Source of the DNA: an uncultured cyanobacterium
GTDB lineage: Bacteria > Cyanobacteriota > Cyanobacteriia > Cyanobacteriales > Nostocaceae
Direction of reading: 5' to 3'
NCBI GenBank assembly: GCA_963706595.1
Contig: OY970166.1
Location: forward strand, 384,001-448,000
DNA length: 64,000 bases
Part shown: positions 40,652 to 45,872 of the stretch, in pieces
Numbering within the stretch: position 1 is the stretch's first letter
How the letters are laid out: each line of letters begins with the position of its first letter
Position numbers and translations under genes: made by a program
The notes under the pieces: generated by a model
Seen by the model: the letters and a program-made list of their open reading frames with translations, nothing else
Told to the model about the DNA's origin: nothing
Databases searched by the model: none

Positions 40652-41434
40652 TTAAGTTTTAAAATGTCTGGCTAACATATTCAATAGAATTTTGCGTGGT
40701 ACTAATCGAGCCAATGTACTTCTAATTTGAGTTTTAATATCACCCATAACAAGTGTTGGTTGAGAGTTTGCTAAAGCCTTTAATGATTCACGCACAACTT
40801 CCTCAGAAGAATAAGCCTTATCTGTATTTCCTGCTAAAGTTGTCGGAAAGTTAGCTTCTACAAAAAAGTTGGTTTCTATGGGACCTGGACAAGTAGCTAG
40901 AACCCGAACACCATAGGGACGATTTTCTGCCCAAAGTGCTTCACTAAAACTGAGAATAAAAGCTTTACTAGCAGCATACACAGAAAGATAGGGTATTGGT
41001 TGAAATGCTGTAATCGAAGATACGTTAATAATGCCTCCTGAATGACGTTGCCGCATGAGAGGCAGAAATTTATGGGTTAAATCTACCAACGCCAAAACGT
41101 TAAGTTGAATAATTTTTATTTGCCGTTCTCTGTCACTTGCGGCAAAATCACCATAGTCACCAAAACCAGCATTATTGATTAATAAATCAATCGTTAATCC
41201 TTGACTTTTAGTAGCATCAAACACAGCCGCAGGTGCATCAAGCTCTGTTAAATCTTTAACTATAACATCTACTTGAATTTGGTATTGGTCTTGTAATTGT
41301 TTTGCTAGTTGATTAAGCTTTTCTGCGGAACGAGAAACTAAAACTAGGTTTGTCTGCCGTGCGGCTAATTCCTCAGCAAAGGCTTTACCTATCCCACTAG
41401 ATGCACCTGTTATTAAAGCAGTTAGCATTCTCAA
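40652..41434 (-). CDS. SDR family oxidoreductase
   Basis: TGASSGIG, NNAG, YAASK. Confidence 0.92.
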   Translation of the reverse strand: MRMLTALITGASSGIGKAFAEELAARQTNLVLVSRSAEKLNQLAKQLQDQYQIQVDVIVKDLTELDAPAAVFDATKSQGLTIDLLINNAGFGDYGDFAASDRERQIKIIQLNVLALVDLTHKFLPLMRQRHSGGIINVSSITAFQPIPYLSVYAASKAFILSFSEALWAENRPYGVRVLATCPGPIETNFFVEANFPTTLAGNTDKAYSSEEVVRESLKALANSQPTLVMGDIKTQIRSTLARLVPRKILLNMLARHFKT

Positions 41435-41804
41435 TATTGAAGAATTTATTATTAATATTATAATTTTTTAAAATAGTTTCTACAAGTTTTAACTATTCAA
41501 ATTTATTGAAGAATGAAGATAAAAAATAGACTCAGTATTCAGTTGGGGCTGACACACACGTAACAAAATAACGCACAGCAAAAAAGAACGCATACACCAA
41601 AAAATCGGAGTTTATGAAAGTTTTTGAGTCAGTCTTGCTAGTGTATTTTTTGGGGAAGGCTGGGAAATCCTCACCTCAGCAGAGGTACAAATAATACTTT
41701 TAGCACCACAGAACAGCCCGCCGTGCATCTATGGACTGACGGCATGAAAATTAATATTTGCTTTCCTGTGAAATATATGTTATCTTAGGTTTTCGTGTGG
41801 TTAA

Positions 41805-41879
41805 GGACGTATAGCTCAGTTGGTTAGAGCGCTACGTTGACATCGTAGAGGTTCCTCGGTTCGAGTCCGAGTACGTCCA
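41805..41879 (+). tRNA. trnV: tRNA-Val (GAC)
   Basis: Acceptor GGACGTA/TACGTCC, anticodon arm CTACG-TTGACAT-CGTAG, T arm CTCGG-TTCGAGT-CCGAG. Confidence 0.92.
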
Positions 41880-41937
41880 TTAATAACCCTCTAGTACACA
41901 GCTTGGGGGTCTTACTTTTCCCTGTATTGGCTTAGGT

Positions 41938-41966
41938 TTAACTCTAGGTTAACCCTGCTGTATGAT
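41938..41966 (+). promoter_or_regulatory. Putative sigma70 promoter of the GIY-YIG gene
   Basis: TTAACT-N17-TATGAT. Confidence 0.45.
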
Positions 41967-41991
41967 GCCATAATCACTCATCAGAGAACCA

Positions 41992-42624
41992 ATGAAAACC
42001 GGGATATATTTAATATCAAACTCAGACAGAGGCATGGGTTACATTGGTAGTAGCCAGAACATAGATAAACGCTGGGGTCAGCACAAAAGCTTTTTAAACC
42101 TGGATAAACACCACTGCAAGGCACTACAGGCGGCTTGGAACTATTATGGTAGGTCTGCGTTTCAGTTGGTAGTTCTAGAACTCTGCGAGGTTACAGAGTT
42201 GGCAGGGTTAGAGCAGATATATCTCAATACTGCGAACTGGGCAACTCTGTACAATACCTCCCGATGTACAGATTCACCTATGAGAGGGTTAAAAGGGCAT
42301 AAATGGACTGAGGAAGAGAAAAAGCGACTTTCAGAGATGTTTAGAGGTGAACTTAACCCCATGTACGGCATAAAGGGCGATTTACACCCCTCGTCCAAAA
42401 TACGGGGTCAACTACATCCCGGATATGGCAAACCTAGACCGCCTGAATCCGTCGCCAAAAGACATCGCAAATATGTCGTAACTTCCCCAGGTGGCGAGGT
42501 GTTCCAAGTATCTGGCTTACGTCCTTTCTGTGTTACCCACGCCCTAAACCAAGGAAATTTAACTAAAGTTGCACAGGGTAAACGCAAGACATACAAAGGC
42601 TGGAATTGCCAATATTTAGACTAG
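41992..42624 (+). CDS. GIY-YIG homing endonuclease with NUMOD3-like repeats
   Basis: GIY...YIGSS..I..RW..H, GHKWTEEEKKRLS, NPMYG, C-terminal TYKGW. Confidence 0.85.
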   Translation: MKTGIYLISNSDRGMGYIGSSQNIDKRWGQHKSFLNLDKHHCKALQAAWNYYGRSAFQLVVLELCEVTELAGLEQIYLNTANWATLYNTSRCTDSPMRGLKGHKWTEEEKKRLSEMFRGELNPMYGIKGDLHPSSKIRGQLHPGYGKPRPPESVAKRHRKYVVTSPGGEVFQVSGLRPFCVTHALNQGNLTKVAQGKRKTYKGWNCQYLD

Positions 42625-42773
42625 GTTGACATCATCGTTAAAGGTGCTAGAGTATTGCAAATATCTGAAAGTCAAGTCATTATTTTGTAACCAGATAAAA
42701 ACCTTGATATTTTGAATACTGCCATAAATTGCGCGATCGCCAAAAGCAAGGCGTAGCTAATCATATTTTATAC

Positions 42774-42980
42774 TTAATGTCTCAGTAAAAATCTATCCGT
42801 ACTGACGAGAACCACAATTAATATCACTAGCTGAAATTGCCAAGGGGCTAATACTAAACTCAAAATTAAACTGATAATTGTAAATAAACTAATCAGATAA
42901 GCTATTTCCCCATCACATTTTTTCGATACATAGTCGGTAGCTAAAGCGGTACAGAGGGGAATCAAAAAAGACAAATGCAT
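42774..42980 (-). CDS. Small hydrophobic hypothetical protein
   Basis: MHLSFLIPL...LVLAPWQFQL; start inferred. Confidence 0.55.
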   Translation of the reverse strand: MHLSFLIPLCTALATDYVSKKCDGEIAYLISLFTIISLILSLVLAPWQFQLVILIVVLVSTDRFLLRH

Positions 42981-43121
42981 TTTTCCTATCCTCGTAACTA
43001 AAATTTCAAAATAGATCAAAGCAGATGAACACTGTGTTTATTTATAATTGTGGTTGATTCTAGCAAAAAACTGGGGCATCACGACTCACACCGAATAGCG
43101 ATCGCCACATCATCGAATTTA

Positions 43122-45872
43122 TTAACTATCTTTTTTCTTGCTTCGCTTTTTCTTCTCAACTTTGAGCAATGGCGTACTCAGTGCTTCATAGAGGCTAAAT
43201 AAATATTCGATGCGATTTAGTTCGCTAACAAAAGGCTGGGGACGATAGCAAAGGTCTACGGCTTTGTCTAGGGCTTTATGTGCTTTTACCAAGTCGGGCG
43301 GCATGGTGAGAGGATCGTAAAGATCAGCGAGACTGCTATCGGGATATTTTGCTCTTGTGTCTAATACTGCTTGTGCGGCGGTTTCGATTTTTTGCTTTTG
43401 TTTGTCGCTGACATTTTCAGGGAATGGATAATTGTTGTAAACGATTGTGTTTGAATAGCGAAAACGACTTTCTAATCTTCCACAAACATACTTAACCCAA
43501 GTCATGTGCATTTCTGAAGTGAGAATACCAAATAGATATAGAGTTGCATTAGGTAAACCAAATGCAAGATTACTAACGATTGTATCTTTACTCAGAAACC
43601 CTATTGGAATATATTTTCGATTTTCAGAAGAAACACTTGGAATTAATAAGTAATCAGAATTAGGCTGTCTATTCTCAGTAAATAATGTTGGAAATTCTGC
43701 CCATTTTATTGTTGAGGTCTTTGTACTAGCTAACCTCATTTTTTTTACTAATTCTACTTTTTTTAATAAGTGAGGAAGTTTCTTAAGTTCTTCTGGTTTA
43801 ATAGTTATTAGCCAGAAGCACCAACGATAGACGTTATTGATAAATTCCTCTGAACCAACAAATCTTCTAATAAACTTTTCTGCTTTTGGCTCTTTTTGCA
43901 AAAAAAGATTCTTTTCTTCATCTGAAAGCAGTAAATTTCCTCCATCTGTAGGTTGGCTACCTTTGACCATTTCAGGCACATTAGAAATTGGCTTAACTCT
44001 TTTTAAAATGATTAGATCATTTCCTTCGGTCAAGTATGGATTAATATTTTTCGCTTTTCTCTCTGTTGATTCACCTTTAATATTTATATACTCAAAGAGC
44101 CTCTTATTTTCAATATCTTGCAACCCAAAGCCAATAATCACACAATGTACAGCCGCATTACCTTTTGCCTCATTACTCCAACTAAAAGTACGATGGGCAA
44201 AATGAATCTTGATTTTATATTTACTATAAAGTTCTTGCCAAAGAATCCCAACTTGCTCACCTTGAGAAATTGAACTTGTACTAACAAAAGCACAACGAAT
44301 ATCAGTATTTTGAATAGTCTGACTTGCTCTAATATACCAAGCAGTTACATAGTCTAATAAACCTGAACTTTTTACATTCCCAAAAACACTTTGCATATCA
44401 GACTTCTGTTGTGAATCTTGGTATGTTTTACCGACAAATGGAGGATTACCCAAAATAAAATTTAACTTCTCTTTTGCAACAACAGACTCCCAATCAATCC
44501 GCAACGAATTACCATGCACAATCTTCGCGGATTTCTTCAAAGGCAACCGCACAAAATACTGTCCAAACTCATTACTCACCTTCACATTCATCTGATGATC
44601 AATTAACCACATCGCCACTTCAGCCACCCGCACCGCAAACTCATCATACTCAATCCCCGCAAACTGATCGACATCCACCTGAATAAACAACCGGACATCA
44701 AGGAAACTTTTGTGCTTCCTATACAATTCTTTTAAAATTTCAAGCTCTAAATCTCGCAACTCTCGATAAGTGATAATTAAGAAATTGCCACAACCACAAG
44801 CAGGATCGAGAAAATGTAAATTTGCAATCTTTTTATGTAATGCTTCTAATTTTCCCTTACTACCCTTAGCCTTCTCAAATTCAATATAAAGATCATCCAA
44901 AAAAAGCGGCTTAATCAACTTTTGAATATTCTTCTCAGAGGTGTAATGCGCCCCTAAATTGCGCCGTTCCGTCTGATTCATCACCGCCTGAAACATTGAT
45001 CCAAAAATTGCAGGAGAAATTTTACCCCAATCAAAGGCACAAGCCTTTAACAACATTTCACGCATCTGCTTATCAAAAGCAGCAGGTTGTACAGTCTCTT
45101 CAAATAACTTCCCATTTACATAGGGAAACTGTACTGAATTCTCATCTAAATTTTTGAACCGCTTCTCGTTTGGGGTATTTAAAGTATGGAAAATCCAAGC
45201 AATGTGCATCGCCAAATCACTGCCATCTTCCTTCGTATGCAAATCAATATATTCCCAAAAAATCCCCTTATTAAAAATGCCTGTATCATCAGCAAACATA
45301 CAGAACAATAGCCGCACTAGATATACTTCTAGATCATGCCCTATGTAACCAATTTCTTTGAGGCGATCATGCAGATCCCCCATCAATTCAGCCGCCGCAA
45401 TATTGACAGGATCTTCATCCTTATAAACCCTTTTTTCATATCCCGCTATAAAGCCGAATAGATGCACATGATTTACAAAATCTTGTAGCTCAAACTCTTT
45501 GGTTTCGTTCGTATCTAAATCATAAAGCCTGAATTTTTGGAAATCCGACACCAAAATATATTTCGGTAACTCATGCTCCTTTAAATTTGGAAAATAATCT
45601 TTTGCTTGTTGTGTAGCCTTATCTAAGTCCTTGCCCCTAGACTTATGCTCCACCAAAATCATTCCTTTCCACAAAAGATCGATAAAACCCTGTTTATTGT
45701 CCGCCTTTTTGATTGGTAACTCAAAACTCCCCACTCGCCGCCGTGAAATGCCAAACACATTAAAAAAGTCATTCCAGAAGGATTGCGACTCTGACTTCTC
45801 TGAAGTTTCACTTTCCCATTCCTTAGAAAAAGCGATCGCCCTTTGCTTAATTTCATTCCAACTTAGAGGCAT
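43122..45872 (-). CDS. MmeI-like Type IIL restriction-modification enzyme
   Basis: ID.....LVEHK nuclease, GAHYT, DPACGCGNF, GNPPF, SLADLYDP. Confidence 0.9.
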   Translation of the reverse strand: MPLSWNEIKQRAIAFSKEWESETSEKSESQSFWNDFFNVFGISRRRVGSFELPIKKADNKQGFIDLLWKGMILVEHKSRGKDLDKATQQAKDYFPNLKEHELPKYILVSDFQKFRLYDLDTNETKEFELQDFVNHVHLFGFIAGYEKRVYKDEDPVNIAAAELMGDLHDRLKEIGYIGHDLEVYLVRLLFCMFADDTGIFNKGIFWEYIDLHTKEDGSDLAMHIAWIFHTLNTPNEKRFKNLDENSVQFPYVNGKLFEETVQPAAFDKQMREMLLKACAFDWGKISPAIFGSMFQAVMNQTERRNLGAHYTSEKNIQKLIKPLFLDDLYIEFEKAKGSKGKLEALHKKIANLHFLDPACGCGNFLIITYRELRDLELEILKELYRKHKSFLDVRLFIQVDVDQFAGIEYDEFAVRVAEVAMWLIDHQMNVKVSNEFGQYFVRLPLKKSAKIVHGNSLRIDWESVVAKEKLNFILGNPPFVGKTYQDSQQKSDMQSVFGNVKSSGLLDYVTAWYIRASQTIQNTDIRCAFVSTSSISQGEQVGILWQELYSKYKIKIHFAHRTFSWSNEAKGNAAVHCVIIGFGLQDIENKRLFEYINIKGESTERKAKNINPYLTEGNDLIILKRVKPISNVPEMVKGSQPTDGGNLLLSDEEKNLFLQKEPKAEKFIRRFVGSEEFINNVYRWCFWLITIKPEELKKLPHLLKKVELVKKMRLASTKTSTIKWAEFPTLFTENRQPNSDYLLIPSVSSENRKYIPIGFLSKDTIVSNLAFGLPNATLYLFGILTSEMHMTWVKYVCGRLESRFRYSNTIVYNNYPFPENVSDKQKQKIETAAQAVLDTRAKYPDSSLADLYDPLTMPPDLVKAHKALDKAVDLCYRPQPFVSELNRIEYLFSLYEALSTPLLKVEKKKRSKKKDS

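Follow-up and report, generated by a model that had tools for sequence, protein, structure and literature searches.

Why does a phage-like endonuclease gene follow a host tRNA gene whose 3' half is spelled in an unusual way? This question is raised by a locus within the 64,000 nt stretch of a Nostocaceae genome analysed here (the window), where a free-standing GIY-YIG gene is located behind tRNA-Val(GAC). Intronless homing has been characterised in phages. The original prediction carried it over to this locus by proposing that the nuclease cuts the naive tRNA gene and brings along a recoded, resistant 3' half. Comparison with the congeners suggests a modified answer. In our best reading a phage-derived cassette moves between species together with a respelled tRNA-Val, and the nuclease likely spreads this cassette by intronless homing. 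We give this reading an even chance and discuss below the evidence on which it rests, together with its rivals.

A compensated respelling of the tRNA-Val(GAC) T arm

The sole tRNA of the window is a complete, intron-free tRNA-Val(GAC) gene at positions 41805-41879 on the forward strand, as found by tRNA scan and Rfam (68 bits against RF00005). It is a single-copy gene, just one Val(GAC) being present among the 45 tRNAs of the source genome (G000). Its variable region and T arm (41849-41871, forward strand) are respelled to a form that we call allele B. The variable region comprises 6 nt (AGGTTC, 41849-41854) and the T stem reads CTCGG/CCGAG, with all stem changes compensated according to alignment and fold. 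Both features had been described correctly in the original prediction. The usual stem was also given correctly there as ACTGG/CCAGT. This canonical stem (allele A) is present in 100 of 103 cyanobacterial-type Val(GAC) genes among the matches listed in a scan of species genomes (93 plus 7 with differences in the loop only). A pattern search for the changed start of the T arm led to 13 of 389 family genomes, 10 of these 13 belonging to the source genus.

Within that genus the 11 congeners, G000 included, show three spellings. Allele B is carried by G000, G001, G002, G003, G009 and G010, allele A by G004. Allele C, with the T stem CCCCG/CGGGG and a 5-nt variable region, is found in G005, G006, G007 and G008 and furthermore in two genomes of another genus. 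The T stem is predicted to stay paired in every spelling. Two candidate sources of allele B were rejected. Gene conversion from another tRNA of G000 finds no donor, as nothing else in this genome matches the B arm with up to 3 mismatches, and no phage copy was found in the viral and metagenome contigs searched.

The pattern might be explained by neutral change. In that case the T arm of one lineage would have drifted with compensation, recombination would have shuffled the result, and a phage fragment would have inserted behind the gene by chance. The locus is indeed mosaic in general, as this explanation would have it. However, 100 of 103 other loci among the matches listed keep the usual arm, a single genus contains three spellings that are set apart by several paired changes, and the nuclease gene stays intact and spreads. 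We consider neutral drift highly improbable. Compensated spellings scattered over the genus tree, with an arm that is near-invariant elsewhere, rather argue for homing.

Another explanation refers to transposons. TnsD-guided insertions are placed about 29-33 bp behind the tRNA (PMC9881144, PMC10293859), and the recognised motif, which belongs to the 3' end of the tRNA, is located at a distance of 40-50 bp from the end of the transposon (PMC11837452). The T-arm changes could then reflect an escape of the host from TnsD-guided Tn7-like or CAST transposons, the nuclease cassette having landed later and without relation to the T arm. Consistent with this idea, the tRNA is a hot spot for Tn7. Of 99 canonical Val(GAC) loci, 44 have a Tn7-like end no more than 26 bp away from the tRNA and 20 have an end of a second type at +27 to +33, while the +30-type end occurs in 0 of 13 respelled loci. 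The difference between 0/13 and 20/99 is not significant, however (p 0.12), and the 13 loci are kin. Moreover, such an escape leaves unexplained why enzyme and allele B spread laterally in recent times and why only one lineage should have escaped. Hence we regard it as improbable.

Within the first 60 bp behind tRNA-Val(GAC), the loci L203-L322 display two classes of Tn7-like ends, at +2 to +11 and at +27 to +33, which are sometimes nested. In L205, L229 and L265 a reversed copy of the tRNA 5' half is found that looks like a homing spacer. G006 exhibits a Tn7-like end of the near type behind allele C.

The cassette behind the tRNA gene

The free-standing GIY-YIG endonuclease gene (41992-42624, forward strand) was identified by domain and profile searches and encodes 210 aa. 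The protein consists of an I-TevI-like catalytic domain, a NUMOD3 and a small C-terminal domain of the repeat type, the latter being conserved in full-length relatives. Matches to GIY-YIG (E 7e-12) and NUMOD3 (E 5e-6, residues 102-126) are accompanied by TIGR01453 above cut-off and by PHROG homing-endonuclease matches. The residues Y6, Y17, G19, R27, H31, H40, E74 and N88, which we take to be catalytic from what is known of I-TevI, are identical among the 6 full-length members of the cluster that we compared, and pN/pS is 0.40 on 22 changes. These two observations favour homing. With intact catalytic residues and NUMOD3 as a DNA-binding-type module in its C-terminal part, the protein is predicted to be an enzyme of the I-TevI-like homing type, and its gene lies outside any intron. 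The phage-like GIY-YIG/NUMOD3 gene of the original prediction is thus confirmed as a mobile gene whose product is predicted to be catalytically intact and of the homing type.

The gene forms an 8-member cluster of its own with no close relatives beyond, one member being labelled Nodularia by its source. Homologues next to tRNAs are rare. Among distant viral relatives 6 of 95 loci are near a tRNA in one survey and 1 doubtful case of 11 in another, and none of the four order-wide homologues found is beside a tRNA, which weighs against homing. The other GIY-YIG genes of the genus gave one weak match near tRNA-Ser among 28 loci. The closest order-wide homologue (L077:1130-2573) is located, without an obvious intron, between two ORFs (107 and 140 aa) which together look like a phage-antirepressor-like gene split in two. 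In L078 and L081 a GIY-YIG gene follows a ribonucleotide-reductase-like ORF, itself split by a transposase gene (identities by eye). A zinc-finger-repeat plus GIY-YIG ORF of up to 877 codons lies between two conserved genes in L329, L331 and L335, in 3 of 11 congeners only.

At its left end the cassette, which is shared with G009, starts with a terminator-like hairpin followed by a T-rich tail (hairpin 41888-41909, whole element 41888-41919, forward strand), and a promoter-like site of the nuclease gene, TTAACT-N17-TATGAT, is located at 41938-41966 on the same strand. The hairpin and the promoter of the original prediction were both recovered by consensus scans and the hairpin is kept in G009, but it folds no better than shuffled sequences (z -0.98). 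In G009 the promoter-like site has TTGACC in place of TTAACT. In total 18 of 112 leader positions differ between G000 and G009. These differences are packed into about 60 bp (41899-41960) including the -35 box, with both flanks 96-100% identical. The hypervariable leader may reflect a tuning of expression. The cassette stretch is contained in RNA runs and spanned by one contig, though contigs cannot show transcription.

Directly behind the nuclease gene lies the orphan promoter of a second cassette gene (42625-42653, forward strand), recognised by comparison with G009. It consists of the -35 box GTTGACATC and the extended -10 element TGCTAGAGT. GTTGACATC (42625-42633) is identical to tRNA positions 41836-41844. 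The original prediction had noted this identity with the anticodon loop region and named a -35 box of the form TTGACA-N16-TAGAGT as a simple alternative. The alternative turned out to be right. In G009 the same TTGACA-N16-TAGAGT sits 21-30 bp before an ORF of 148-151 aa, and about 485 bp with this gene are present in G009 but deleted from G000 at 42653/42654. The promoters of the second gene and of the nuclease gene are of the same design. Moreover, TTGACA is intrinsic to the GAC anticodon loop, and 51 of the 696 GTTGACA sites of G000 continue with TC. A target-site duplication or att remnant was dismissed on the same grounds. The right arm of the cassette (42654-42705) is common to G009 only, and homology with the other congeners resumes near 42706.

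The second cassette protein of G009 resembles the C-terminal part of phage antirepressors, which is a lead only, and has no match in the phage, plasmid, viral or metagenome collections searched. Homologues of its gene, in 18 of 389 family genomes, adjoin VapE-like, integrase-like and prophage-like genes and also occur as relics beside tRNAs. Because of these surroundings we infer that the cassette originates from a mobile element. The second gene in G009 is cargo typical of prophages or satellites. This kinship to prophage- or satellite-like elements counts against homing.

It leads to a further explanation, in which tRNA-Val(GAC) was the integration site of a prophage or satellite and obtained its present 3' half, allele B, from this element, the nuclease being a passenger with its target elsewhere. 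The attP of tRNA-integrating prophages and satellites restores the tRNA 3' half. The remainder of the element would have been lost in a single deletion, together with the displaced 3' half and with the kinase gene found behind the tRNA in several congeners, and the block would since have moved by ordinary recombination at a variable hot spot. Apart from the surroundings of the second gene, the mosaic locus fits this scenario, as does a GC3 of 45% versus 21% in the neighbouring host gene. The anticodon arm of Val(GAC) is moreover a frequent att-like core in viral contigs, where it is followed by 3' halves with different T stems. On the other hand, no displaced 3' half is found in G000, and behind either cassette the longest exact match to the tRNA is 7-9 nt, although the deletion could have removed the site. 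Allele B is absent from the viral and metagenome contigs searched, and only an unusual excision could have left it before the native kinase gene. By eye, no integrase is present at the locus in the 11 congeners read, and the ORF list of the window contains none between tRNA-Val(GAC) and the next conserved gene. Rfam likewise detects neither an intron nor another RNA family besides the tRNA in 41400-43200, in agreement with the original prediction, which saw no intron and no integrase. Taken together, a prophage or satellite relic seems possible but rather unlikely.

Copies of the Val(GAC) 3' half with different T stems are found in AT-rich prophage-like contigs (L127-L201). A split match of 8+9 bases to the tRNA at the end of the second gene of G009 scored above all 1500 random pieces with a statistic chosen after the match had been seen. 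The two parts are separated by an invariant His codon, and the match does not hold in a third variant, so that we treat it as chance.

Distribution and lateral spread within the genus

Among the 11 congeners the nuclease gene is found behind tRNA-Val(GAC) in G000 and G009 only. Five enzyme copies can be linked to a tRNA, and 5 of 5 carry allele B, namely those of G000, G009 and the sequencing runs X1, X2 and X16, whereby the runs need not be independent of the G000 and G009 lineages. In these three runs a gap-free contig among the matches listed joins the tRNA 3' half to the cassette. For X15, with four runs compared, the matches listed contain no such contig. The coupling of enzyme and allele B argues for homing.

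The opposite is seen from the side of the allele. G001, G002, G003 and G010, i.e. 4 of the 6 genomes with allele B, have neither the nuclease gene nor a cassette remnant behind the tRNA. Three of these four exhibit a kinase gene in this place that is apparently ancestral and that allele C genomes retain as well, whole or in part. This speaks against homing, as does allele C, beside which no enzyme is found in 6 genomes read. The claim that the enzyme brought the recoded 3' half is not borne out, given that alignment to endonuclease-free relatives reveals the same T arm in four of them, the outcome named beforehand as contradicting it. The enzyme-less carriers are nevertheless a weaker counter-test than expected because enzyme-less carriers of each spelling are common in a parallel system described below.

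Lateral movement of the enzyme gene, in contrast, is well visible. A tree of rpoB/C1/C2 separates G000 and G009 as non-sisters, G009 being joined with G008 at 100% support. Two sister pairs with full support each combine both alleles, C in G005 with B in G001 and B in G009 with C in G008. Simple vertical inheritance of allele B within one clade is hence unsupported by this tree, some inner nodes of which are weak (44-66%). Between G000 and G009 the nuclease gene differs at 3 of 84 fourfold sites. In host genes the share is 27-28%, with 33 of 117 sites for the dehydrogenase gene next to it and 396 of 1447 for rpoB/C1/C2. The near-identity includes the upstream flank (41621-41804, left edge by eye), which travelled with the cassette as a putative co-conversion or recombination tract. 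It shows 8 differences in 184 bp versus 44 in 186 bp further left (Fisher p 6e-8). Within 41651-41740 G009 is 95.6% identical, whereas the nine remaining congeners reach 51-82%, G007 sharing few columns. In X2 the cassette is nearly unchanged but combined with a different upstream haplotype, and 108 bp of its dehydrogenase gene contain 12 differences. X2 is thus a third background with a short tract. The near-identical gene in non-sister genomes with its shared tract, the third background and the alternation of B and C are in favour of homing.

Against homing stands the mosaic nature of the locus, owing to which ordinary recombination can move a linked block. G001 and G008 are 92% identical in the same upstream stretch, and the downstream side of G000 is G007-like. 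Thus a lateral transfer with flank is seen, but ordinary recombination would give the same picture as co-conversion. From about 42763 on the window is most similar to G007 (94%), a further recombination patch, and a restriction-modification gene of the MmeI type is located at 43122-45872.

Proposed mechanism and comparison with known systems

If the cassette homes, the nuclease would cut other T-arm spellings of the chromosomal tRNA-Val(GAC) and spare allele B, with a target probably in the 3' half of the gene. Incoming donor DNA would then serve as template for the repair, by which allele B, the cassette and some upstream flank would be copied, and the copied block would replace resident downstream genes, such as the kinase gene of several congeners. 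Free-standing phage enzymes are described to cut away from their own gene and to co-convert flanks (PMC2988022). Enzyme-less carriers of allele B may have lost the gene, or the tRNA alone may have been converted. Alternatively, the enzyme may have landed behind a B allele that was already resistant. The cassette would thus either have created allele B or merely exploit it. Homing and the rival explanations can also combine, since an enzyme of phage origin can begin to home as soon as it has come to lie behind an allele that is resistant.

The parallel drawn by the original prediction to SegB of phage T4 holds as a functional analogy but not as orthology. According to two papers (PMC2330249, PMC2988022), the Seg enzymes share with the present one a free-standing GIY-YIG plus NUMOD3 gene by a tRNA gene, the replacement of the neighbouring region and the lateral inheritance of flanks. 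In contrast to the phage tRNA cluster of SegB, the target site in G000 would be a single-copy host tRNA on the chromosome. The kinship is limited to the nuclease domain, with an E of 0.088 in BLASTP and 64 columns covered by a profile match, and we rejected a SegB orthologue as only this domain aligns and a single chromosomal tRNA takes the place of a phage tRNA gene cluster. SegB spares T4, since the preferred tRNA-Asn site is missing there, whereas here immunity would come from a respelling of the same tRNA. The core motif GGTTCRANTCC, given for SegB in PMC2330249, is kept in allele B, so that any immunity would rest on other stem positions. This motif, with 48 occurrences in G000, counts against homing.

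I-TevI provides the best solved-structure match by sequence (catalytic domain, residues 1-64, E 4e-6). Its target is protected by interruption; in G000 there is no intron, and protection would be a matter of respelling. A group I intron-encoded endonuclease was dismissed, the tRNA being complete and without an Rfam intron match. An intron-borne homing enzyme of cyanobacteria likewise has a chromosomal tRNA gene as target but is located in a group I intron and belongs to a nuclease family other than GIY-YIG, which is likely that of the Arg(TCT)-linked enzyme described in the following. Integration by prophages and satellites at tRNAs is similar in its phage-like genes right behind the tRNA and in a possible foreign 3' half, and differs by the integrase and displaced 3' half that were not found at the cassette locus.

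A parallel system at tRNA-Arg(TCT)

By following the second cassette gene of G009 we reached a locus at tRNA-Arg(TCT) with a nuclease gene of the PD-(D/E)XK type (PDDEXK_5), which has matches, partial ones included, in 144 of 361 family genomes (E <= 1e-8). We read 70 loci (L468-L537), the 30 best plus 40 chosen by hand at at least 69% identity. A tRNA-Arg(TCT) is found at 70 of 70, and the nuclease gene starts 63-213 bp, mostly about 72 bp, behind it (69 loci listed). The encoded enzyme has no sequence match in PDB. Here the anticodon stem of the tRNA shows several compensated spellings, the two commonest being ACGGA and ATTGC.

A tree test was performed with 52 tips (29 and 23 for these two spellings), leaving aside 18 loci where the spelling was a rarer one or the flank gene was missing. 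The spelling changes once on the enzyme tree but 21 times on the tree of the adjacent host gene (shuffle mean 17). The latter tree is short and poorly resolved in the largest genus, yet sister pairs across types occur in other genera, too. This pattern makes the Arg(TCT) nucleases strong candidates for competing chromosomal intronless homing enzymes, of which it is expected. Both spellings also occur commonly without the enzyme, including in G000 and its congeners, so the absence of an enzyme alone does not refute homing. In G000 the tRNA-Arg(TCT) at G000:C1:3269538-3269612 has one of the spellings and no enzyme. The Arg(TCT) system, in which an unrelated nuclease displays the arrangement of the tRNA-Val locus with much greater clarity, is a family parallel that favours homing at tRNA-Val, but it is an analogy for the GIY-YIG enzyme and not a test of it.

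In a wider view, Nostocalean chromosomes would host a class of intronless homing elements whose targets are single-copy tRNA genes with an essential function and which gain protection from compensated respelling of a tRNA stem. The GIY-YIG gene at Val(GAC) would be a young member and the PD-(D/E)XK gene at Arg(TCT) an old one, with two specificities displacing each other along with the anticodon-stem spelling, and selfish nucleases rather than translation would drive these tRNA sequences. We consider this generalisation about equally apt to hold or to fail. If true, an essential tRNA of bacteria would be subject to chromosomal intronless homing, and immunity would be achieved by a respelling that is neutral to the structure. 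This would account for abrupt odd stem swaps in tRNA genes, would imply that homing via incoming DNA works in free-living cyanobacteria, and would bear on a site also used by Tn7/CAST transposons. In the part of the literature searched, no description of a Nodularia tRNA-Val endonuclease or of a free-standing tRNA-Arg nuclease in Nostoc was found; the related papers listed there deal with phages or introns or are reviews.

The Arg(TCT) pair comprises two natural enzymes, 77% identical, with predicted reciprocal specificities. The two types are identical at 71 of 115 positions in the catalytic half (62%) and at 96 of 102 in the C-terminal half (94%).
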